Source of the DNA: an uncultured Bdellovibrionales bacterium
GTDB lineage: Bacteria > Patescibacteriota > Minisyncoccia > Moranbacterales > DUUL01
Assembly: GCA_964556685.1 (NCBI GenBank)
Contig: CAZKWX010000003.1
Location: 78 to 64,077, forward strand
Length of the DNA stretch: 64,000 nucleotides
Direction: 5' to 3'
The translations under genes were made by a program, and so were the position numbers. Below the pieces are notes generated by a model. That model worked only from the letters and a program-made list of their open reading frames with translations. It did no database searches and had not been told where the DNA came from. Shown in pieces: positions 5,685 through 63,752 of the stretch (the first letter of the stretch is position 1; every line of letters begins with the position of its first letter).

Positions 5685-6239
5685 TCAAACTATCTCCTCA
5701 CCTTTTCTCCAAATCAACCAATATTTATTTTTGTCTTTCGTTTTCTTTTCCTCCTGCTCGTCTTCAATCAGATGTTTTTGAGAAAATTTTTTTTGTTTAT
5801 TATTAAAGCCTTTGGTCAAGATCATAATGTAGCGACCTTTGACTTTTTCGCCCAAAAGATTGAAAGACAGTTTTCCTTCTTCGAATGATCCATTGATCAT
5901 GCCCCATTTTCCTTCGTCCCAAATTTCCACCGTTCCGGCACCATAGTTGCCTTCAGGAATTTCTCCTTCAAAATCAACATAGTCCACTGGATGATCTTCT
6001 GTTTGAATCGCTAGATGTTTGATTTCCTTGGTCAGAGGCAAGTTCTTAGGAACTGCCCACGATTTGAGCACCACTTTGCCATTCTTCTCATCTTTCATTT
6101 CAAGCCGAAAATCATAGTGCAGATGTGATGCATCGTGTTTTTGAATCACAAACCTCTGTTCCGAAGTCTTTCTGGCAGCGGGCTTCGGTTCTTTTGTCTC
6201 CTTAAAATTGCGTTTGAGCCGATATTGAATTAAGCTCAT
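5685..6239 (-). CDS. LigD-type 3'-phosphoesterase (PE) domain protein, stand-alone
   Basis: 184 aa; HLHYDFRLE motif and beta-rich core typical of the LigD PE / DNA polymerase-ligase N-terminal domain. Confidence 0.6.
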   Translation of the reverse strand: MSLIQYRLKRNFKETKEPKPAARKTSEQRFVIQKHDASHLHYDFRLEMKDEKNGKVVLKSWAVPKNLPLTKEIKHLAIQTEDHPVDYVDFEGEIPEGNYGAGTVEIWDEGKWGMINGSFEEGKLSFNLLGEKVKGRYIMILTKGFNNKQKKFSQKHLIEDEQEEKKTKDKNKYWLIWRKGEEIV

Positions 6240-11159: not shown

Positions 11160-11837
11160 ATGAAAGAGAAAGAAAGAAAACGGGCAATCAAACTCAGAAA
11201 ACTAGGACTTTCCTATAATGAAATCTTGGAAAGAGTTTCCGTCTCCAAATCAACTCTATCTGTCTGGTTGAGAGATGTTGGGCTTGCTAAAAGTCAGAAA
11301 CAAAGATTAACAAAGAAGAGAAAACTTGCCCAGCTAAAAGCACAGCGAGTCTGTAGGGAAAGAAGGATAGAAATTACCAAGGAAATAAGAGAAAAAGCTT
11401 CCAAAGAAATTGGAGAGATATCGCAAAGGAATTTATGGCTAGTTGGAATTTCTCTTTATTGGGCCGAAGGGAACAAACAAAAAGAATCTAACGTATCAGA
11501 AAGAGTGGGATTAGGAAATTCTGATCCGGACATCATAAGGATATTTATTCTTTGGCTAACTAAAATATGTAAAATTAAAAGAAGTGATATTGATGTTCGC
11601 TTAGCAATTCATGAAACAGCTAATGAAAAAAGAGCGAAAAAGTATTGGTCTAAAATATCCAAGGTTCCAATTCCAGAATTTAAAAAAACACTGATAAAAA
11701 GGCATAACCCTAAAACTAATAGAAAATATAATAAGAATTATAATGGCCTTCTGATCGTATCTGTTAAGAAAAGTACGAATTTTAATAGGAAAATTAAAGG
11801 TTGGATTGATGGTATTATTGATAACACTGGGGTGTAG
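11160..11837 (+). CDS. HTH-domain protein with LAGLIDADG-like motif (putative homing-endonuclease-like)
   Basis: 225 aa; N-terminal sigma-70 region-4-like HTH (LGLSYNEILERVSVSKSTLSVWLRD); LWLVGISLYWAEGNK resembles LYLAGFVDGDGS of single-motif LAGLIDADG enzymes; stop codon overlaps tRNA-Gln. Confidence 0.4.
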   Translation: MKEKERKRAIKLRKLGLSYNEILERVSVSKSTLSVWLRDVGLAKSQKQRLTKKRKLAQLKAQRVCRERRIEITKEIREKASKEIGEISQRNLWLVGISLYWAEGNKQKESNVSERVGLGNSDPDIIRIFILWLTKICKIKRSDIDVRLAIHETANEKRAKKYWSKISKVPIPEFKKTLIKRHNPKTNRKYNKNYNGLLIVSVKKSTNFNRKIKGWIDGIIDNTGV

Positions 11838-11899
11838 CCAAGCGGTAAGGCAGTAGCTTTTGGAGCTATGATTCGTAGGTTCGAATCCTACCACCCCAG
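11828..11899 (+). tRNA. tRNA-Gln (anticodon UUG)
   Basis: Cloverleaf UGGGGUG/CACCCCA acceptor with U1-A72, D arm GCCAAGCGGUAAGGC, anticodon loop UUUUGGA, T arm GUAGGUUCGAAUCCUAC, discriminator G; near-identical layout to E. coli tRNA-Gln. Confidence 0.85.
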
Positions 11900-12032
11900 C
11901 ATAGTAGGACAAGAAGAGGCAGAAACGCCTCTTTTTGCTTTATTTAAAGCAAGAAAGATCGGTTCGAGGGCTGGCATTCTGATCTTTAGATCTCCAGCAT
12001 CTTCCATGAGCCAATTAAACGGTTCTCTTAGC

Positions 12033-12518
12033 TTAAACTTGGCTATTTTTCTGTCCTTTAGAATGATGTTCGATGATGATCTCCCTGGCATATCCGGCCA
12101 AGTGCAACCCTGGCGGAAAAAAGTCGTGAGCCGTTGTAGAAATTGGACATAGCCCAATTTCATGAGGTTGCATATCTTCGGGATACTTCACGGAGTATTT
12201 TTTCACCACGCCCCGTCCCTCTTCGGCCAATTCCTCCAATATGAGATGTTCCTCATAATTTTGAGGAACATCCTTTGCAGAAATTCTGAGTAGTTGCACC
12301 CTTTGTTTGATTTCAGGCAATCTCTTTTCAAAATCCTTTCTGCTGAGGCGTGGCGGGCGTTCAATGGAACGCACCAATATTGTATTGCGTCCCAGCTTTT
12401 TGATCGTATCTATCAGAATATCAAAGATGGGGTTGTCACTTCCAACGATTTTAAGAGCCTTCAAAAAATCTTCTTTGCTGTTGTGTTTAATTTTTTCCTC
12501 CAATCGTTTATTTTGCAT
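12033..12518 (-). CDS. Hypothetical protein
   Basis: 161 aa ORF, no recognisable motif. Confidence 0.45.
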   Translation of the reverse strand: MQNKRLEEKIKHNSKEDFLKALKIVGSDNPIFDILIDTIKKLGRNTILVRSIERPPRLSRKDFEKRLPEIKQRVQLLRISAKDVPQNYEEHLILEELAEEGRGVVKKYSVKYPEDMQPHEIGLCPISTTAHDFFPPGLHLAGYAREIIIEHHSKGQKNSQV

Positions 12519-17533: not shown

Positions 17534-17670
17534 AAAAACTTTCCCAAAAGGAAAGCTTCATTCAGCATCTTTCCTCGAAAGGCTAGAGTTGGCACCTACT
17601 GAGATCAAACTCAGGGTTGCCGGCAGGTCATTGGGCTAGATCCCTATCTGCACTCTTGATGATATTTGGT
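17534..17670 (-). promoter_or_regulatory. SAM-I (S-box) riboswitch with intrinsic terminator in the metK leader
   Basis: Minus-strand ATCAAGAGTGCAGATAGGGATCTAGCCCAATGACCTGCCGGCAACC...GGTGCCAACTCTAGCC matches the S-box consensus; followed by GGAAAGATGCTGAATGAAGCTTTCC stem + UUUUGGG U-run just 5' of the metK ATG. Confidence 0.75.
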
Positions 17671-19077: not shown

Positions 19078-19245
19078 TCACTTCCAGTCTTCGATCATAA
19101 TCTTTTGGCCTTTTCGGGTGATGACAACCTTTTGACCTTCTTTGATTTTCAAGGCCTTGATGATTTCCATTGGAATTGTCACTCCATAGCTTCCTGCTTT
19201 TCGATAGACCTTGCGAATGCTTTTTTCTTTTAGTTTTCTTCTCAT
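19078..19245 (-). CDS. AbrB/MazE/SpoVT-type (swapped-hairpin) DNA-binding protein, antitoxin-like
   Basis: 55 aa from MRRKLK (start revised from 19302 ORF); GVTIPMEIIKALKIKEGQKVVI matches the looped-hinge helix of AbrB/MazE; palindromic operator sits 12 bp upstream. Confidence 0.6.
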   Translation of the reverse strand: MRRKLKEKSIRKVYRKAGSYGVTIPMEIIKALKIKEGQKVVITRKGQKIMIEDWK

Positions 19246-19256
19246 AATTATGCTTG

Positions 19257-19286
19257 GGTACCTTTTAAGGTATCTTAAAAGGTACC
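19257..19286. promoter_or_regulatory. Perfect 13-bp inverted repeat GGTACCTTTTAAG-GTAT-CTTAAAAGGTACC (putative operator of the AbrB-like gene)
   Basis: Perfect palindrome immediately upstream of the revised start 19245; a related GGTACCTC-AA-GAGGTAC palindrome lies at 18349-18368 upstream of the 18499 gene. Confidence 0.5.
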
Positions 19287-19386
19287 TTTTTATTACCTTC
19301 ATTCTATCATATCTACTTAAAAACTTGCATCATTAATTTAATAATATATCATATTACTCAAAAAGAAGCCTAATCTACTAATTGTT

Positions 19387-19929
19387 ATGGCATATCAAGT
19401 TGCCGAGTATTACAAACAGTATTTCCCATTCATTCAAGAGTGGGGAAGAAAAAAAGATATTAGTCACCATCTTCAGTATTTAGATTATCTTTACGATATA
19501 AAAAGGAGTAACAATCCTGATCGCACTTATTTATCGCTAACAAACAAGACGATCATTGTCGAATTCTTTGCTATATCCGAAGCTATAATTGATGCTCTTT
19601 TATGCGAAAAAATAGTTGATATTGGTGACGGAAAATTAGCACAGCTGTATGTGAAAGAATATACAAATGCTTCTACGTTATTAAAAATGGCTGAATATTA
19701 TGAAATAATAGACAAAAATATTTACGGTCAATTACTAAGCCTTTCAAAAACAAGAAACTTTATCCATATAAAAAGACCGAAAAGTGGCAAGCTAGAATGT
19801 AACCATTATACAGACGCTGTGCTTAAAAGGTATGAGAATTATTTTGAAAATTTTCTATCCTTTCTCTTCAATAAATACAAAGTTTATGAGACTTATGGAC
19901 TTGGTATTTTCGCTTGGCCATGGAAATAA
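19387..19929 (+). CDS. Hypothetical protein (divergent from the AbrB-like gene)
   Basis: 180 aa ORF, Tyr/Lys-rich, no assignable family. Confidence 0.45.
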   Translation: MAYQVAEYYKQYFPFIQEWGRKKDISHHLQYLDYLYDIKRSNNPDRTYLSLTNKTIIVEFFAISEAIIDALLCEKIVDIGDGKLAQLYVKEYTNASTLLKMAEYYEIIDKNIYGQLLSLSKTRNFIHIKRPKSGKLECNHYTDAVLKRYENYFENFLSFLFNKYKVYETYGLGIFAWPWK

Positions 19930-20131
19930 TCTTAATCCATAATTTTTTTTAGTAAGAGGATAAAACGAAAATCCCCCTTAGTCCCCCTTTTTCTAAGGGG
20001 GAAATATTAATTGCCACTTAGCTTTATTTTCGCTAAAATATCAACTTTCCAAATAAAAAAGCCGTTGGCCTGCGCTTAGAGCAAGTCTCCGGCTTTTTAA
20101 ATTTCGCTGATTTCTTTTCAAAATGAGGGAT

Positions 20132-20911
20132 TTACTCGAAATCTAGCCTGAATCTTGCCCAAAAATCATCAGTGAGATACAGACCTGACTTTTCTCCAAA
20201 ACTACCATGCTGGCCAATCAGTTGTTCGATACAGAAGAAAGCAGGATTGTCTGACCAGGCAACAATGTAGTGGTCCGTTTCGACAGATGACTGCATGGTC
20301 ATATAAATTCTGCAAACCCGTATCAGATCGATTATAACCGGGCATTCTGGATCATCCCAAGGAACTATTACAGCTTTTTTAAAAATGCCGCGATAGGGAT
20401 TTTTGAAAATCGGTAAACCAAGATTACACCATAAACCGTGTCGGTTATTGAAATATCAATGTTGTGCCAAAGTAAAGGGTGCATCCGAAGAGAACTTATC
20501 TAACCGAGAAAGATGCACTCGAACTTCAAAGGCTTTCTTAAGAAGTTGAAAGTCAATATTGCACTTAATCTCCCAAGGGTAGTCTGGAAAATTTTCTTCA
20601 TCATTTCCAATAATTGACTTACTTGTGATGAGATTCTTGTCGGCTCGCACCTGTTCAGAGTCGACGTCTCGAAGCCATCCATGCTGGGGAATTCCCGGAA
20701 AGTTGTCCGGTGTGCGACCAAAATTCGGGAAACATAGATGGGTTTTTCGCGGTTTAATAACTTCATCGTCACGAACGATTTCCTCAACCGGATTTCCATC
20801 CCTGTAAATGATATCTCGGCCAGGGAAAAGGATGTGAGCTCCATATCGCTGAAATCTTGTTATATTATTGCTTACAACATCAACGCTCATATCATGGCCT
20901 TGGATCAACAT
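20132..20911 (-). pseudogene. Aldose 1-epimerase / D-hexose-6-phosphate mutarotase-family gene interrupted by one in-frame TGA
   Basis: N-terminal 151 aa (..HLCFPNFG..PQHGWLRD..) ends TLAQH-TGA, then the same frame continues stop-free for 107 codons (YFNNRHG...HYIVAWSDNPAFFCIEQL..), restoring the mutarotase H-x-YFN and CIEP motifs. Confidence 0.65.
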
Positions 20912-20939
20912 AAGACACCTCTCCTTCGCCGAAAATTTG

Positions 20940-21371
20940 TTATAACACAGCCGTTGTTTTTCGTGGTCCGATAATAACTTTACACAGATACGAATCTGAC
21001 CAATTCATCGAAGCTCTATCAAAATATGCTCGCGCTTCATCCTTGTCATTAAACGGAACAAATTTTCTTTCTTCGCCATCACCAAATATAATTACAAAAT
21101 ATTTGGTTACGAGATCTGGTTCTTTTTTCTCTAGTTCCAATCCTCTTGCAATAGCATGAAAAGCATCGGCAATGGCTCTAGGCAGACCAGGAAATGCCGT
21201 AGCTGCACCACCCGAGGTGCAAATTCTGACACCTCTTCCAGCAACGCCCCGACCTTCTGGTACTGTAGCAACGTACCAATCGCCGTTACCTCCTATAGTA
21301 ATCACTAGTTCATTTCTCCTTTTCGAATCTTTATCATCAGTGAGAAACCTGACTTCCTTGATTTCACTCAT
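20940..21371 (-). CDS. Hypothetical protein
   Basis: 143 aa ORF in higher-GC islet. Confidence 0.45.
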   Translation of the reverse strand: MSEIKEVRFLTDDKDSKRRNELVITIGGNGDWYVATVPEGRGVAGRGVRICTSGGAATAFPGLPRAIADAFHAIARGLELEKKEPDLVTKYFVIIFGDGEERKFVPFNDKDEARAYFDRASMNWSDSYLCKVIIGPRKTTAVL

Positions 21372-21758
21372 TTTTTTCCTCCTTTTGTAAATAACTTTGA
21401 TTGTTTATTATCAAGGTTACATTAATAGCATTTATTTTCCGAAAATTCAAGCTGCAAAAAAATACCCATTAAAATGGCCATTTAAATGGGTATTTTTTCA
21501 TCCCATCTTAATCTTCCCCTTATTAATGGGAGGAACATCATCAACCACCCCCATCCTTCGCTAAAGCTTCAGAGGGCAGGCCTACGCCCCTCCCTGCCTA
21601 CTGGCAGGCAGGCTTTCTAAGGAGGGGAAAGATGCAAATCCCCCTGAAAAATGTGATCCATTTCGTTCATCTATGTTTTTCTTCTCCCTCTTTCAAAAGG
21701 GGAACAAGAACAACAGGTTGCGTTTGAATGGTTATGTCTTTATGATGAATTTGAAAAT

Positions 21759-22301
21759 ATGAAAAAGCGTTTAGATCAAAAATTTTATGCTCAAGACACT
21801 CAACAAGTGGCTCAAGGCCTTTTGGGTAAAATTTTAGTTCGGAAAATTGGCCATCAAACGATCGAAGGCACAATTATTGAAACTGAAGCCTACTTGGGAC
21901 AATACGACAAGGCCTGCCATACTTCGCGAGGGAAGACAGCTCGAAATGAAATTATGTTCGGTCCGGCAGGTTTTTGGTATGTCTATATGATTTATGGCAT
22001 GTACCATTGCCTCAATATCGTCACCGAAAAGGAAGATCAAGGATCTGCCGTTTTGATTCGAGCAGTTGAACCAGTTTCTAGACTAGCTTCTAACATCAAA
22101 ACTGATGGACCAGGAAAATTGTGTCGAGAATTTCAAATTGATAGGAAATTAAATGATTCAAGTGCGTTCGATAATGATTCAGAATTATATATAGTGGATA
22201 ACTTCATTAAACCTAAAATAAATAAAACAAAAAGAGTCGGCGTTGATTATGCGGGAAAATTTTGGAAAAATAGATTATTGAGGTATCATATAGAAAAGTA
22301 A
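21759..22301 (+). CDS. mpg: DNA-3-methyladenine glycosylase (Mpg/AAG family)
   Basis: 180 aa; LLGKILVRK..GTIIETEAYLG..DKACH..RGKTARNE.MFGP.G..YVYMIYGMYHCLNIV. Confidence 0.85.
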   Translation: MKKRLDQKFYAQDTQQVAQGLLGKILVRKIGHQTIEGTIIETEAYLGQYDKACHTSRGKTARNEIMFGPAGFWYVYMIYGMYHCLNIVTEKEDQGSAVLIRAVEPVSRLASNIKTDGPGKLCREFQIDRKLNDSSAFDNDSELYIVDNFIKPKINKTKRVGVDYAGKFWKNRLLRYHIEK

Positions 22302-28563: not shown

Positions 28564-31500
28564 TTATTTTGAATTATTTTTCCCTTCTTCCAGTCGTTCT
28601 TTTTTTTCTTCTGAGTCAATTTCTTTGACTATTCTGGCCACTTCATCATAAGAAGTCTCGCCTAACAAAACTCTCAAGATGCCATCTTGAGCCATGGTCA
28701 TCATTCCCTCTTCGATGGCCTCTTTTCTAATTTCGCTAGTAGTGGGATTCTTAGCCAAAAATGTTTCCATCTCCGGATTAATTTCAAGCATCTCAGCAAT
28801 AGGAATTCTTCCTTGATAGCCAATGTCGCTGCACTTTTCACAGCCCACTGGATCATATATCTTTTTAATTGGGGGTGTTTTTATTCCTGTTTTGGGAGAA
28901 AGCTCTTCGAGTGCTTCGTTGATCTCTTCTTTTTCTGAATCAGTTGGCCTTCTTCCTTTTCGACAATCAGGACAAAGTTTTCGCACCAACCTTTGAGCGA
29001 TGAAGCAATTGGTTCCAGCAATCATATCAGAAAGACTCAGTCCCATATTAACTAGGCGCTGAATTGATCCAGCCGCACTGTTGGTGTGCAAGGTGCTCAA
29101 AACCAAATGGCCAGTTAGAGCCGCTTGATAGGCCGCTTCGGCTGTGTCACCATCCCGAATTTCACCCACCATCATAATGTCAGGATTTTGTCGGAGCAAG
29201 GCCCTGATAGCTGTTGCAAAAGTGTAGTCTTCTTTTTCTTTAATTTGAGTTTGAATAATCCCATCCAGTTGATATTCGATTGGATCTTCAACGGTAATTA
29301 TTTTTGATTCAGGACTATTAAGATAGGTCAAAGCACTATAGAGAGTAGTTGTTTTTCCGCTGCCGGTTGGCCCAGTGTTGATGATGATTCCATTGGGCTT
29401 CTTGATGTTGCGTTTGAGTTTTTCCAAGTTGAGTGGATGCAAGTTTAATTTTTCAAGTTCAGTCGCCTGAGCTGCTTGGTTGAGCAAGCGCATCACGATA
29501 ATGTCTCCGAAGCCACCCAAAATGATCGAGACTCTCACGTCAATTCTTTTATCTTTGATTTCTTTCATGTCATCGGGAACACTAATTCTGAACCTTCCAT
29601 CAATCACCCCTTGTCTGATTTGAGTTTTGAATCCAGAAAGGTTTTTGATTTCATTCAAAACATTTAAAAATTCGGTCATCGGCAATCTCACAATATCATG
29701 TAAAATTCCGTCGATTCTGAATCGAACTTTAAAGTCATTTTCCCCTGGTTCAATGTGAATATCACCCGCTCTCATGAACAGCGCTGCCGAAAGAACATAC
29801 TTAATGATCTCACTCAGAGAAGCCTTCTGAAGTTTTGTTTCCAATTTTTCATAATCTTTGGATAGTTTTTTAGTTTTATCCATAATTTCTTTTTCAATCA
29901 TGACTCCTCTTGAAAGAGATTGAATGACAATCTTTTCATAGATTTTCATGAGATATTCTCCTGTTCCAACCACTCGTTGCAATTCTTCCAGTGATGTTGT
30001 TCCTTGGATAGATTTTAGAATTCCATCTTGTTCATAGGTGATCATGCCATTCTCCAACGAAGCAATTCTTAAATCATCTTCAGTGGCAATTTTTTCAATC
30101 AGGTTTCTAATGTCATCATTGATAGTCATAACTTCAAAAATTCCTGTTCTCCCTCGATAGCCCAGCCCTTGACACTTGTGACATCCTTTTGGCCGCCAAA
30201 GATATTCTACCTTTTTAGGGATTTCCACCTTTGATTTGGGAGAAATTAACGAGAGCATCTTTTTGAGAGTGGTGATTGTTTCTTCGGCCGGCACATATTT
30301 TTCTTTACAATGAAAACAAAGTTTTCGCACCAATCTCTGGGCAATAAGACAATTTACGGCCGAAGCAATCAGGGCGGGTTTGACTCCCAAGTCAATCATG
30401 CGGCCAACTACTCCCGCTGAGCTGTTTGAGTGGATAGTGGTTAACACTAAATGACCGGTCAAGGCTGCATGGATTGCAATTTCGGCTGTAGCTTCATCCC
30501 GAATTTCACCCACTAAAATAATATCTGGGTCTTGACGAACAATTGAGCGAAGGCCTTTTTCAAAAGTATAACCCTTTTCATCCTCTACTTGAGTTTGACT
30601 AACTCCTGAAACTTGATATTCCACTGGATCTTCAATGCTAATAACTTTTTTGTCGGGAGAATTTATTCGATTGATGATTGAATAGAGAGTAGTAGTTTTA
30701 CCGCTGCCGGTTGGTCCAGAGTTGATGATCATGCCTTGCTTTCTCTCTGATTCAGCTACTAGCCAATCATAACTCAACCCAGTCAATCCTGCTTTTTTGA
30801 GATCAAGTTCTTCGATGTCTTGACCCAACAGTCGAATCACAATATTTTCTCCGTGATTGCCAGGAAGCACTGAAACTCGAACATCAATTTCATCTCCCTT
30901 TTCTTCGTCAAGTTTGATGGAAAACCTTCCATCTTGAGCAACTTCTCTCACATTGACCATCATTTTGCTCAATATTTTTATTCGAGACAAAATTGTGGGA
31001 TAGATGTTGATGGAAAATTCCGCTACCGTCTGAAGCACCCCATCAATTCGGTAACGCAACCTGACTTTCTCGTCTTTTTCTGGTTCAAAGTGAATATCCG
31101 ATGCTCTGAGTTTCATCGCTCCAGCAAAAATCATATTCAGAACCTCAGTCACTGGGAGTTCGTTAATTCTTTTTTCCAAATCAATAACTCCTTCGAGATC
31201 TTTTTCGAACTCTTCCAGATCTCTCCCCTTCAGATTCATCCTCATATAGTCAAAGACCTCAGTTAGTCTAGTCTTTTTGTATTCGCCTAGCGCTGCTTCG
31301 AAAGAAGTTTTTGAAACTACAAATACTTCAACTTTATAGCCCTCTTTTTTCTCCAAATTTTCCAGATAGGTTTTAACTTCCTTAGGCTGCGGATTAACAG
31401 CAGCGACCTTGATGTCTTTTTCCTTCCGGTAGATGGCCATCAGATTTAACTTTTTGGCCTCTGTCTCAGGAACAACCCAAATGCTTTCCTGATCAATGGG

Positions 31501-31668
31501 AAAGATATTCAAATCTAAGTAGGGGTAGTTCAAGGACTTGGCAAATCGAGCCGCTTCTTCCTCCTCTGACTTCTGGCGAAGCGTTTTCAGCACTTTGCGA
31601 ACTTTTGTGGGATCGGCCATTCCTGGATTATGGATTTTTTTTGTTTTTTTATTTTCTTTTTTTGGCAT
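28564..31668 (-). CDS. pilB: Tandemly duplicated type IV pilus / type II secretion ATPase (PilB/GspE-GspE fusion)
   Basis: 1034 aa; two complete GspE N-terminal + ATPase cores, each with Walker A GPTGSGKTTTLYS, Asp/His boxes and a C-terminal tetracysteine zinc module (CFHC..CHKC and CPDC..CEKC). Confidence 0.85.
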   Translation of the reverse strand: MPKKENKKTKKIHNPGMADPTKVRKVLKTLRQKSEEEEAARFAKSLNYPYLDLNIFPIDQESIWVVPETEAKKLNLMAIYRKEKDIKVAAVNPQPKEVKTYLENLEKKEGYKVEVFVVSKTSFEAALGEYKKTRLTEVFDYMRMNLKGRDLEEFEKDLEGVIDLEKRINELPVTEVLNMIFAGAMKLRASDIHFEPEKDEKVRLRYRIDGVLQTVAEFSINIYPTILSRIKILSKMMVNVREVAQDGRFSIKLDEEKGDEIDVRVSVLPGNHGENIVIRLLGQDIEELDLKKAGLTGLSYDWLVAESERKQGMIINSGPTGSGKTTTLYSIINRINSPDKKVISIEDPVEYQVSGVSQTQVEDEKGYTFEKGLRSIVRQDPDIILVGEIRDEATAEIAIHAALTGHLVLTTIHSNSSAGVVGRMIDLGVKPALIASAVNCLIAQRLVRKLCFHCKEKYVPAEETITTLKKMLSLISPKSKVEIPKKVEYLWRPKGCHKCQGLGYRGRTGIFEVMTINDDIRNLIEKIATEDDLRIASLENGMITYEQDGILKSIQGTTSLEELQRVVGTGEYLMKIYEKIVIQSLSRGVMIEKEIMDKTKKLSKDYEKLETKLQKASLSEIIKYVLSAALFMRAGDIHIEPGENDFKVRFRIDGILHDIVRLPMTEFLNVLNEIKNLSGFKTQIRQGVIDGRFRISVPDDMKEIKDKRIDVRVSIILGGFGDIIVMRLLNQAAQATELEKLNLHPLNLEKLKRNIKKPNGIIINTGPTGSGKTTTLYSALTYLNSPESKIITVEDPIEYQLDGIIQTQIKEKEDYTFATAIRALLRQNPDIMMVGEIRDGDTAEAAYQAALTGHLVLSTLHTNSAAGSIQRLVNMGLSLSDMIAGTNCFIAQRLVRKLCPDCRKGRRPTDSEKEEINEALEELSPKTGIKTPPIKKIYDPVGCEKCSDIGYQGRIPIAEMLEINPEMETFLAKNPTTSEIRKEAIEEGMMTMAQDGILRVLLGETSYDEVARIVKEIDSEEKKERLEEGKNNSK

Positions 31669-54005: not shown

Positions 54006-54917
54006 ATGTCAAAAATTCAGAATCTCATTACTGACTATCTCGAATATCTTGAAGTTGATCTCGGCCGATCCGAGAAGACTTTGGAAAATTATCATCGCTA
54101 TTTAAATAAATTTATTGAGTGGTCAAAGATCACCAGCTCTTCCCAAATCAATGAAAATTTGGTTCACAAATATCGGGTTCGTCTCAATCGAGTTCAAGAC
54201 AAAAGTGGCAAGAGTCTTTCTCGTCGAACTCAGAATTATCACATCATCGCTCTGCGAGGTTTTTTGAAATATCTTTCCAAAAAAGATATCAAATCTCTAG
54301 CGGCCGAAAAATTGGACTTAGCTAAAACTGAAGAACGGCAAGTTGATTTTCTCACTTTCGATGAAGTGAAAAGTCTCATTGAAGCAGCTGAAGGGACTAC
54401 TCAAATGAAGTTGCGTGATCAAGCTATTTTAAAGCTTTTTTTCTCTTCTGGTCTTCGAATTTCTGAATTAACAAGTCTCAATCGTGATCAAATCAATCTC
54501 AAAAGTGGTGAATTTTCTGTTCGTGGCAAAGGCTCAAAAGTGAGAATCGTCTTTGTTTCTGATGTGGCTCGCGATGCTATTCGCAAATATTTCGATAAGC
54601 GCACTGATGTGGACCAAGCCCTCTTTGTTCGAGTGATGAAAAATCCTGAAAAAGAATCTGACCTGCGCTTAAGTGCTCGGAGTGTCCAAAGAATGATCAA
54701 AAAATATGCTGCCAAGGCTGGCATCGTCAAAAAAGTCACTCCTCACGTTCTGCGCCACAGCTTCGCCACTGACCTGCTTCAGAACGGTGCCGACATTCGT
54801 TCCGTTCAAGCCCTCTTGGGCCACAGCTCAATCAACACCACTCAGATCTATACTCATGTGACCAACAAAGATCTCAAAGAAGTGCACCGAAAGTTTCATG
54901 GAAAGGAGAGGAGGTAA
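54006..54917 (+). CDS. xerC: Tyrosine site-specific recombinase XerC/XerD-like
   Basis: 303 aa; RHSFATDLLQNGADIRSVQALLGHSSINTTQIYTHV C-terminal catalytic block (R..HxxR..Y). Confidence 0.85.
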   Translation: MSKIQNLITDYLEYLEVDLGRSEKTLENYHRYLNKFIEWSKITSSSQINENLVHKYRVRLNRVQDKSGKSLSRRTQNYHIIALRGFLKYLSKKDIKSLAAEKLDLAKTEERQVDFLTFDEVKSLIEAAEGTTQMKLRDQAILKLFFSSGLRISELTSLNRDQINLKSGEFSVRGKGSKVRIVFVSDVARDAIRKYFDKRTDVDQALFVRVMKNPEKESDLRLSARSVQRMIKKYAAKAGIVKKVTPHVLRHSFATDLLQNGADIRSVQALLGHSSINTTQIYTHVTNKDLKEVHRKFHGKERR

Positions 54918-55156: not shown

Positions 55157-55230
55157 GGACGATTAGCTCAGGTGGTTAGAGCGTTCGCTTGACATGCGAG
55201 AGGTCGGAGGTTCAAGTCCTCCATCGTCCA
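55157..55230 (+). tRNA. tRNA-Val (anticodon GAC)
   Basis: GGACGAT/ATCGTCC acceptor, D arm GCTCAGGTGGTTAGAGC, anticodon stem-loop TTCGC-TTGACAT-GCGAG, T arm GGAGGTTCAAGTCCTCC, discriminator A. Confidence 0.85.
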
Positions 55231-55417
55231 CAAGGAAGTCAGAGATTTTAACAATTTGTCTCCGACGTTACGTTGGAGCAACAAATCGAAATCCGCTCTT
55301 GGCGGGCAAGTCCCCTCGAGCCCACAAGATAAAAGGCGTCTCTAGCGCTTTTTTAGTTTTTTCTGTTTTACTTTCCTCTTTTTTGATGTTACATTTGGAA
55401 TACCTAAAGTAAAAAAT

Positions 55418-59684: not shown

Positions 59685-60554
59685 ATGAAAATCGGCTGTC
59701 ACGTTTCCATCGCCGGAGGATTAGAAAACGCTCCCAAGAACGCTCGGGACTTGGATTGCGAATGTTTTCAAATGTTTTCCCGATCACCTAGAGGCGGAAA
59801 TTACACCCCCCTAGACGAAAAAGGGGCAAAAACATTTCTAGAAGCCTGCAAAAAATATAAATATGAAATTGGCAAGGATTACGTTATCCACTCTCCCTAT
59901 TTTATCAATTTAGCCAGCAGCAATAATCGGATTTATTATGGCTCAATCAATATTTTGCGACAAGAATTAGACACGGCCAGCTTGATTGATTGTCCTTATG
60001 TGATCACACACATTGGTAGCGCTAAGGATATCTCTGGAAAGACGTCGGACGTCTCCAAAGACGTCGGACGTCTCATCCTAAGAGCTATCAAAAAAATCCA
60101 CGAAAAATATTCTGGCAGTGCTCAGTTAGTTTTGGAAATCGCTGCCGGATCAGGCCAGATTATTGGCGATTCGCTTGAAGAAATCGGTTATTTTTTAAAA
60201 CAGGCCAAAAAAGATGATATTGAATTGGGATTTTGTTTTGACACTTGCCACAGCTTTGCAGCTGGTTATGATTTGAGATCAGCAGAAAAAGTGCGAGAAG
60301 TTTTTGCCGAAATTGACAAAGTAATTGGCTTGGATCACCTTAAGTGTATTCACTTCAATGACTCAATGACCGAGTTTGATTCTCACAAGGATCGCCACGA
60401 GCATATTGGCAAGGGTCAAATTGGAAAAGAAAACCTCAAAGAAGTAGTCAAGGTAGCTCAAGAACTTGATCTGAACTTATATTTAGAAACCAAGCATGAT
60501 AAGATAGAAGAAGACCTTAAAGTCACGAAAGGATTTCGTGACAATTCCAGATGA
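59685..60554 (+). CDS. nfo: Endonuclease IV (AP endonuclease family 2)
   Basis: 289 aa; HSPYFINLAS, VITHIGS, CFDTCHSFAAGYD metal-ligand motifs; stop TGA. Confidence 0.85.
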   Translation: MKIGCHVSIAGGLENAPKNARDLDCECFQMFSRSPRGGNYTPLDEKGAKTFLEACKKYKYEIGKDYVIHSPYFINLASSNNRIYYGSINILRQELDTASLIDCPYVITHIGSAKDISGKTSDVSKDVGRLILRAIKKIHEKYSGSAQLVLEIAAGSGQIIGDSLEEIGYFLKQAKKDDIELGFCFDTCHSFAAGYDLRSAEKVREVFAEIDKVIGLDHLKCIHFNDSMTEFDSHKDRHEHIGKGQIGKENLKEVVKVAQELDLNLYLETKHDKIEEDLKVTKGFRDNSR

Positions 60555-60650
60555 CAAAATCCCAATGCCAAACCAAGCTCAAATTCCAAATTAATTCTTT
60601 CATGCTTTGTTATTGATTTGTCATTTGATATTTGATATTTATCATTTTAA
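60555..60650. repeat. AT-rich hairpin repeat element, copy after nfo
   Basis: Same family as 57859-57950 (identical 32-mer at 60604-60635). Confidence 0.55.
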
Positions 60651-60653
60651 GTT

Positions 60654-61316
60654 ATGACTCTCAAAGAACTCGAAGAAAAAACTAGAACTTGCACCAAATG
60701 TGGCCTAGCTGATGGTCGCACTCAAGTGGTTCCTGGTGAAGGCAGCGCTAAAGCCGAGGTTATGTTTATTGGTGAAGGCCCGGGTAAAAACGAGGATGAA
60801 CAAGGCCGTCCTTTTGTTGGTGCAGCTGGAAAGTTTCTGACTGAACTGATTGAATTGATAGGAATGAAACGAGAAGACGTTTACATTGCCAACGTGATCA
60901 AGTGTCGACCGCCCAACAATCGTGATCCGATGCCTCACGAAGTTGATGCTTGTTGGCCTTGGTTAGAGCAGCAAATTCAGTTGATTAAACCTAAAATAAT
61001 TGTTCCTTTGGGACGTCACAGTCTAGCCCGATTTTTGCCAGTGGCTCGCATCAGCGGTGACCACGGAAGAGCTTTGCGGAAAAATCTTGAATTTTCAGAT
61101 AAATCCTCTCGCCGGATTATTTTCTTTCCTTGTTATCATCCGGCAGCTGCTTTGTATAATGGTGGACTTCGCGAGGTGATTAAAAAAGACTTTCAAAAAA
61201 TTCCTAAGATTTTAGAGATTGCTGATAAAGAAAAGAATGAGCCTGCTCCTGGTGCTGATTATACCCCTCCAGAAAAAGAAAAGACTGATGAACCTGTTCA
61301 GGGAAGCTTATTTTAG
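60654..61316 (+). CDS. Uracil-DNA glycosylase, family 4 (Fe-S type)
   Basis: 220 aa; GEGPGKNEDEQGRPFVGAAGKFL motif A, 4Cys Fe-S ligands, HPAA motif B. Confidence 0.85.
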   Translation: MTLKELEEKTRTCTKCGLADGRTQVVPGEGSAKAEVMFIGEGPGKNEDEQGRPFVGAAGKFLTELIELIGMKREDVYIANVIKCRPPNNRDPMPHEVDACWPWLEQQIQLIKPKIIVPLGRHSLARFLPVARISGDHGRALRKNLEFSDKSSRRIIFFPCYHPAAALYNGGLREVIKKDFQKIPKILEIADKEKNEPAPGADYTPPEKEKTDEPVQGSLF

Positions 61317-63035: not shown

Positions 63036-63752
63036 TCATGACATCGCCTTCTTTCTGAGATTCTGAGGCATTTTTTCAATGGCATAGCGCAAGGCTGTGC
63101 GCGGCATTCGATTCTTATTTTTAATTACATAATCAAATACTTCCTTTTGCCAGAAATTAGCTGCCTCTTTAAGCATCCAGCCATAGCCCTTTTGCACTAG
63201 ATCATCTTCATCCAAAAGTAGCTGATCAGCCACCCAAAATATATCTTTGAGATATTTTTTTTCTTTTTGTTTGGCATGATAGATCAAAGTTACCGCTGCG
63301 GCTCGTTTTTCCCAGCGGTTTTCTGATTTGGTCCATTTTTTTAACTTTTTTAATAATTCCGGAAATTGATAAATCAATGTTCCAAAAGTGTGGGTACAGA
63401 AATCATCACAATGAGCCCAATTGTGGACATACTTTTTGAGCCATCTCTCAAATATATTGAAATCATCAATTGTGAAATCTTTTCTGATTTTACAGGCCCA
63501 GGAGAATGCTACCGTCCCATGCTCCATGTAGCCAGTCCTCAATAATCTCTCACAAAGATCAAAAATCTCTTTTTTATCTAGTCCTTTCACTTCTTGAAAG
63601 TATTTCCTTGCAATAGTCCTCGTGTCTTTTGCTCTAACTCCAATGGGATTTATTTTTTCTTTAAAAAAATTCATCGAGCCTTTTTTATATTCTAAGTCTC
63701 GATGCTTTTTTAAATCTCTTGTGATTTGAGTAATAACCTGCTTTTTATCCAT
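63036..63752 (-). CDS. DNA alkylation repair protein, AlkD/AlkC-like HEAT-repeat glycosylase family
   Basis: 238 aa; helical repeats with WEKRAAAVTLIY..VQKGYGWMLKEAA blocks typical of the AlkD-like family. Confidence 0.55.
   Translation of the reverse strand: MDKKQVITQITRDLKKHRDLEYKKGSMNFFKEKINPIGVRAKDTRTIARKYFQEVKGLDKKEIFDLCERLLRTGYMEHGTVAFSWACKIRKDFTIDDFNIFERWLKKYVHNWAHCDDFCTHTFGTLIYQFPELLKKLKKWTKSENRWEKRAAAVTLIYHAKQKEKKYLKDIFWVADQLLLDEDDLVQKGYGWMLKEAANFWQKEVFDYVIKNKNRMPRTALRYAIEKMPQNLRKKAMS

Follow-up and report, generated by a model that had tools for sequence, protein, structure and literature searches.

A reproducible in-frame TGA in a mutarotase-like gene of a standard-code Patescibacteria genome, probably a recent nonsense mutation

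The mutarotase-like gene on the minus strand at 20911 to 20132 of the window, by which we mean the whole stretch of 64,000 nucleotides analysed here, contains one in-frame TGA, and this gene is quite probably a young pseudogene produced by a real, reproducible and recent nonsense mutation in a Patescibacteria genome that uses the standard code. In the mechanism that we propose, an uncultivated, standard-code Patescibacteria (CPR) bacterium would have gained a single nonsense mutation at codon 152, and translation would halt after the invariant His151. The 151-aa product lacks about 40% of a single beta-sandwich domain, including Asp221 and Glu229, the latter of which probably corresponds to the glutamate that acts in catalysis in characterised mutarotases. 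Because that part of the domain and both residues are missing, the truncated gene is predicted to be inactive, that is, a pseudogene. Three options had been left by the preliminary description, namely a very recent nonsense mutation, a sequencing error and local recoding. Since an error is unlikely and local recoding is without support, a recent nonsense mutation is the best reading of the locus. The finding is an ordinary one.

Results and Discussion

Structure of the interrupted gene

The N-terminal ORF (20456-20911, minus strand; 151 codons plus TGA) ends in ...TLAQH and is followed by the TGA at 20458-20456. This TGA is codon 152 and lies between the invariant H151 and Y153, in the local context CAU-UGA-UAU. 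The same frame then remains open for 107 sense codons (20132-20455, minus strand), reading YFNNRHG...WSDNPAFFCIEQ...FRLDFE up to a TAA at 20134-20132, in agreement with the preliminary description, which had given a 151-aa ORF followed by 107 further codons in the same frame. By chance, 107 codons without a stop have a probability of about 7e-4, as calculated from the base composition, and only 1.4% of all intervals between stops in the window are at least 107 codons long. The codon-usage score was best in frame 0 for both parts of the gene.

Two other ways of expressing the downstream part were considered and rejected. Frameshifting at the TGA was ruled out, as the continuation is already in frame 0. 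Separate translation of the C-terminal piece was likewise rejected: the earliest in-frame start past the TGA is M204, which leaves 56 aa, so that a useful separate C-terminal product is implausible.

The Shine-Dalgarno-like sequence AAGGAGAGGTG, as read from the sequence at 20916-20926 (minus strand), is followed after 4 nt by the ATG at 20911 and falls within the 28-nt gap that separates the gene from a 143-aa upstream ORF (20940-21371, minus strand), which has no Pfam match and was called as a gene in all of the Logan loci; the two genes are probably co-transcribed. On the other side, a GC-rich hairpin with a flanking A-run and T-run (20054-20099) resembles a bidirectional terminator. The terminator-like site on the minus strand, at 20071-20059, is placed 3' of the full-length TAA and away from the internal TGA.

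Family, fold and conserved residues

The gene belongs to the aldose-1-epimerase superfamily, within a compact clade of about 250 aa from uncultivated organisms with small genomes, and the superfamily assignment made earlier holds on the Pfam match, the homologues and the fold of the merged product. The merged 259 aa matched the Pfam family Aldose_epim (PF01263) at 28.3 bits (cut-off 27, E = 1.5e-6). This match runs across the stop, over residues 58-157, and each half by itself gives no score; an uninterrupted frame for the whole Aldose_epim domain is absent, with the TGA standing at codon 152. No NCBIfam model matched the merged product. With phmmer, 1.84 billion cluster representatives were searched exhaustively, giving 104 homologues, nearly all of which are single proteins of 240-260 aa that aligned in one stretch across both halves; the best matches were P0002 (39% identical), P0003 (40%; residues 12-258, E = 1e-33) and P0004 (37%; residues 3-258).

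A family profile from 20 homologues matched 13 mutarotase-like chains of the PDB, including 3k25 (Slr1438) with E = 1e-23 over both halves and 2ciq (yeast hexose-6-phosphate mutarotase) with E = 2.5e-17 over profile positions 7-176 only, the N-terminal two thirds. In the AF2 model, the merged product forms a single beta-sandwich domain (pLDDT 91.8, pTM 0.89) with strands contributed by both halves. When this model was searched with Foldseek, the top 16 matches were all mutarotase-like structures, and 3dcd, 3k25, 3q1n, 3nre and 2ciq were matched with E values of 2e-10 to 2e-8 and TMq values of 0.61-0.70.

The invariant or near-invariant residues are distributed over the two parts of the gene. 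R55, H77, R81 and H151 are carried by the N-terminal ORF, together with strands of the mutarotase-like beta-sandwich, and Y153, W219, D221, C227 and E229 are carried by the continuation. H77, H151, D221 and E229 are invariant in an alignment of 20 sequences and 97-100% conserved in an alignment of 94 sequences. The downstream motifs Y153-F-N, W219-S-D221 and C227-I-E229-Q align to family-invariant columns, and the earlier statement that the continuation completes the mutarotase motifs was thus confirmed. The conserved active-site residues of characterised mutarotases are two His and one Glu, of which the first His and the Glu serve as acid/base catalysts (PMC5902678). Judging from their positions in the motifs, H77, H151 and E229 are likely to be the equivalents of this His/His/Glu set.

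Compared with its closest relatives, the product has an insertion of 11 residues at about 43-53 (VEEIVRDDEVI, window 20752-20784) and another of 4 residues at about 107-110 (NFPD, window 20581-20592). The lowest pLDDT of the AF2 model (77) was found in a 10-residue block, residues 41-50. As a separate observation, an intact homologue among the closest, that of the P0002/P0105 cluster (MBU1251992.1; 39% identical), comes from a MAG that bears the label 'Nanoarchaeota archaeon', in contrast to the bacterial window; either the compact mutarotase-like clade is common to CPR and DPANN-type organisms, or the 2-kb contig of MBU1251992.1 was mis-binned.

Genetic code of the genome

The window encodes FtsK, DnaX, IleRS, PNPase, IF-2, RuvB, S2 and EF-Ts among others, and 24 of its genes with Pfam support were used to examine the use of TGA. 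None of their 10,448 codons is an in-frame TGA. Moreover, TGA closes the genes of IleRS, DnaX, lspA, the nfo-like AP endonuclease and a DNA-alkylation-repair protein exactly at the ends of the Pfam profiles, and reading on past these TGAs gives short extensions, further stops or an out-of-frame overlap with the next gene. The preliminary description had named dnaX and nfo as genes that end in TGA; both (the latter as an nfo-like gene) were verified, and the other three can now be added. Code 25 is used by two lineages of Patescibacteria, the group to which the host belongs, and this membership is what would favour a genome that reads UGA as sense (code 4 or 25) like some of its relatives. Against such a reassignment stand both the 0 of 10,448 count and the five genes terminated at their profile ends. 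Reassignment therefore has next to no probability and is effectively refuted, as had already been concluded for code 25 in the preliminary description. The genome uses code 11, the standard code, and the TGA in the mutarotase-like gene is a one-off.

Reproducibility of the TGA in the DNA

Six public contigs (NCBI and Logan) encode exactly this 151-aa product. Over a 1380-nt stretch with the gene at its centre, the Logan contigs from the runs SRR24302412, SRR24302418 and SRR29008690 show 100% identity to the window, and one of the three differs from the window by a single SNP at 17658, away from the gene. Because three separately assembled SRA runs carry the same TGA, it is very unlikely to be an error of a single assembly.

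The wider possibility that the TGA results from a sequencing or assembly error, the real codon being a sense codon and the gene intact, should be weighed against the nature of this support, which comes from assembled contigs; in addition, all of the known copies are from near-clonal populations that are 99.97-100% identical. However, the three SRA assemblies and the NCBI record agree on the base calls across the whole gene, and one run, whose accession does not belong to the series of the others, carries a SNP elsewhere. The site itself, CAACATTGATATTTC, is not a homopolymer. Nor did an intact allele emerge when the merged 259 aa were used for a word-indexed search of the protein collection, which matched only the 151-aa fragment. 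These results make an error very improbable, and this option of the preliminary description can hardly be kept, with the identical TGA present in three independently assembled runs.

Recoding, selenocysteine and read-through

The family column at the TGA is occupied by Pro in 85 of 93 homologues, by His in four, by Asn in two, and by Ser and Phe in one each; Cys occurs in 0 of 93. In the nearest clade the residue is His or Asn, the codons of which are three substitutions away from TGA. The description of this site as Ser/Ala/Gly in homologues was therefore wrong, since Pro predominates, the closest clade has His or Asn, and Ser was seen once. No other family member is truncated at the codon-152 site.

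We looked for signals of recoding around the stop. No hairpin was found near the UGA: the 91 nt around and after it have an MFE of -13.7 kcal/mol, and shuffled sequences average -13.75 (z = 0.02). When 19800-21500 was scanned permissively with Rfam, no match reached the gathering score, and those below it were chance matches. None of the 6 tRNAs detected by ARAGORN in the 64-kb window is a tRNA-Sec. The earlier remark that no SECIS-like element was obvious is borne out by the fold (z = 0.02) and by the lack of an Rfam match.

These observations bear directly on the possibility that UGA encodes selenocysteine and that the gene is a selenoprotein mutarotase. The in-frame UGA does adjoin an invariant His, and the check for selenocysteine machinery covers 64 kb of the genome. 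Nevertheless, none of the 93 homologues has Cys at the column, and neither a SECIS-like hairpin past the UGA, an Rfam SECIS match nor a tRNA-Sec in the window was found; to our knowledge, no redox role of the codon-152 position in mutarotases has been described. We consider a selenoprotein extremely improbable.

A leaky stop deserves somewhat more attention, although we regard it as unlikely. The gene would then still be functional at a low level, some full-length 259-aa mutarotase being made by occasional decoding of UGA by near-cognate tRNA-Trp or tRNA-Cys or via an unrecognised local signal, and little enzyme might be enough for an accessory activity that also happens spontaneously. Such leakiness would fit the fully intact downstream frame, which is conserved as well as the upstream part and keeps every invariant residue, as well as the intact Shine-Dalgarno sequence, the intact terminator placed past the full-length frame, and the presence of the TGA allele in every sampled contig. 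All of these features are, however, equally expected of a very young pseudogene. No stimulatory structure was found downstream (z = 0.02) and no Rfam element, no relative has a stop at the codon-152 site, and the 0 other in-frame TGAs in 10,448 codons give no indication of a genome-wide tendency. In E. coli, a U 3' of UGA favours termination over leakiness, and the nucleotide directly 3' of the UGA in the mutarotase-like gene is U.

A tolerated or programmed read-through site, with the downstream frame kept because the full-length mutarotase is still made, is very unlikely in our judgement. If this were true, the site might conceivably stand at an early stage, an 'ambiguous intermediate', of the kind of UGA reassignment known from Gracilibacteria and Absconditabacteria, and its demonstration would provide a rare local UGA recoding in a phylum with two UGA-reassigned lineages. 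We found no evidence here that points toward local UGA recoding, and this option of the preliminary description is unsupported: Cys homologues, a SECIS-like structure, conservation of the stop and a tRNA-Sec in the window are all lacking.

Age of the lesion and constraint on the gene

We return to the preferred reading, a nonsense mutation, and to its age. Residues 1-151 are 36-43% identical to the closest relatives, and residues 153-259 are 32-42% identical to them. As the 107 downstream codons contain no further stop or frameshift and their similarity to the homologues matches that of the upstream part, the lesion appears to be evolutionarily recent. The intact 107-codon continuation is compatible with a recent lesion and equally well with read-through. 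The Shine-Dalgarno sequence and the operon position are retained, and the stop is the sole lesion.

Some features of the sequence hint weakly at an earlier relaxation of constraint on the mutarotase-like gene. It is the most divergent member of its clade, with 36-40% identity compared with 44-52% among the other members, and it departs from conserved columns at 6 of 27 positions, compared with 1.7 +/- 1.5 in the other members. Three of the six departures are clade-wide, and the change of the near-invariant RGG to R-K is seen only in this gene. The truncated allele seems to be fixed in the six sampled contigs, which shows only its persistence in the populations, whatever its effect on fitness.

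None of the protein collections, GTDB representatives and JGI metagenomes yielded an orthologue with more than 40% identity. A clade-alignment scan of the GTDB representative genomes gave 36 pattern matches, none of which was a relative; the genome of the window and its close kin are not among these representatives. The metagenome scan yielded four relatives that are 32-38% identical, all intact and with His or Asn at the TGA site. MetK of the window, encoded 3 kb from the mutarotase-like gene, shows no more than 72% identity to its counterparts in Patescibacteria (CPR) MAGs, and a mutarotase homologue was present near MetK in 0 of 80 Patescibacteria loci (10-kb flanks, MetK identity at most 72%). 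Likewise, no conserved neighbourhood was recognised around two of the relatives (the P0004 contig and L084).

Base composition and neighbourhood

The GC content of the mutarotase-like gene is 0.418, compared with 0.404 +/- 0.029 for the genes in the window, so that the 'higher-GC islet' of the preliminary description was not borne out, and the horizontal origin that had been suggested from it lost its support. The segment 19000-20000 has a GC content of 0.31 against a window mean of 0.40, and the gene seems GC-rich only beside that segment, which is the compositional outlier of the neighbourhood. Within the low-GC segment, the ORF at 19078-19302 (minus strand) is like a MazE/AbrB-type antitoxin (PF04014), for which no toxin partner was recognised, and the 180-aa ORF at 19387-19929 (plus strand) has no Pfam match and a GC content of 0.315, the lowest among the genes checked.

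Several other genes of the window may be recorded here. The 1034-aa protein encoded at 28564-31668 (minus strand) matches T2SSE (PF00437) with 733 bits in two stretches. It also contains an MshEN domain and looks like a PilB/GspE-type secretion ATPase, about twice the usual length, that was duplicated in tandem or fused. DNA-repair genes are numerous in the 64 kb (5685-6239, 21759-22301, 59685-61316 and 63036-63752), the set comprising a protein with a LigD 3'-phosphoesterase domain, a methylpurine-DNA glycosylase, the nfo-like AP endonuclease and the DNA-alkylation-repair protein, and a gene for a UDG-superfamily glycosylase directly follows that of the nfo-like AP endonuclease. A 225-aa HTH_23 ORF (11160-11837) has TAG as its stop and shares its last 10 nt with the 5' end of tRNA-Gln (11828-11900); its frame is open for 104 codons past the TAG, over the tRNA-Gln and antisense to the ORF at 12033-12518, probably by chance. 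The tyrosine recombinase gene at 54006-54917 (plus strand; Phage_integrase with a SAM-like N-terminal domain) is located about 240 nt from tRNA-Val (55157-55231) and could encode XerC/D or an integrase adjoining a tRNA attachment site.

Significance and comparison with known systems

For annotation, the two pieces are best entered as one disrupted mutarotase-like gene, in place of a hypothetical protein of 151 aa. The case also shows the stop to be biological in origin and no artefact of assembly, and its importance beyond annotation is small.

Like ordinary bacterial nonsense pseudogenes, the gene has one premature stop in a conserved single-domain enzyme, the stop being absent from all homologues, real in the DNA and without a recoding signal. 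The present case differs in that there is a single lesion with no visible downstream decay, which suggests that it is young, and in that the host is a streamlined CPR genome; few pseudogenes are expected in such genomes. Bacterial selenoprotein genes share the in-frame UGA in a standard-code genome, but they differ from the gene studied here, for which a Cys at this position in homologues, a SECIS hairpin and, within the 64-kb window, a tRNA-Sec are all lacking.

With respect to the members of PF01263, of which 3k25, 3dcd and 3q1n are the nearest structures, the merged product is likewise a single beta-sandwich and contains motifs of the same type (PQHGWLR, H-x-YF, WSD and C-x-E). The solved members are 289-344 aa long, whereas the product here is about 250 aa and its Pfam score is barely over the threshold; furthermore, the frame is broken by the TGA, and a full-length product is not expected. 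The family also shares with D-hexose-6-phosphate mutarotase (yeast YMR099c, 2ciq; bacterial YeaD, 2hta/2htb) the N-terminal motif R-G-G-[IS]-P...FP.FG and, again as in that enzyme, the His/His/Glu triad conserved in mutarotases (PMC5902678). In the family, the RGG columns are 96% and 81% conserved, whereas the interrupted gene has R-(gap)-K.
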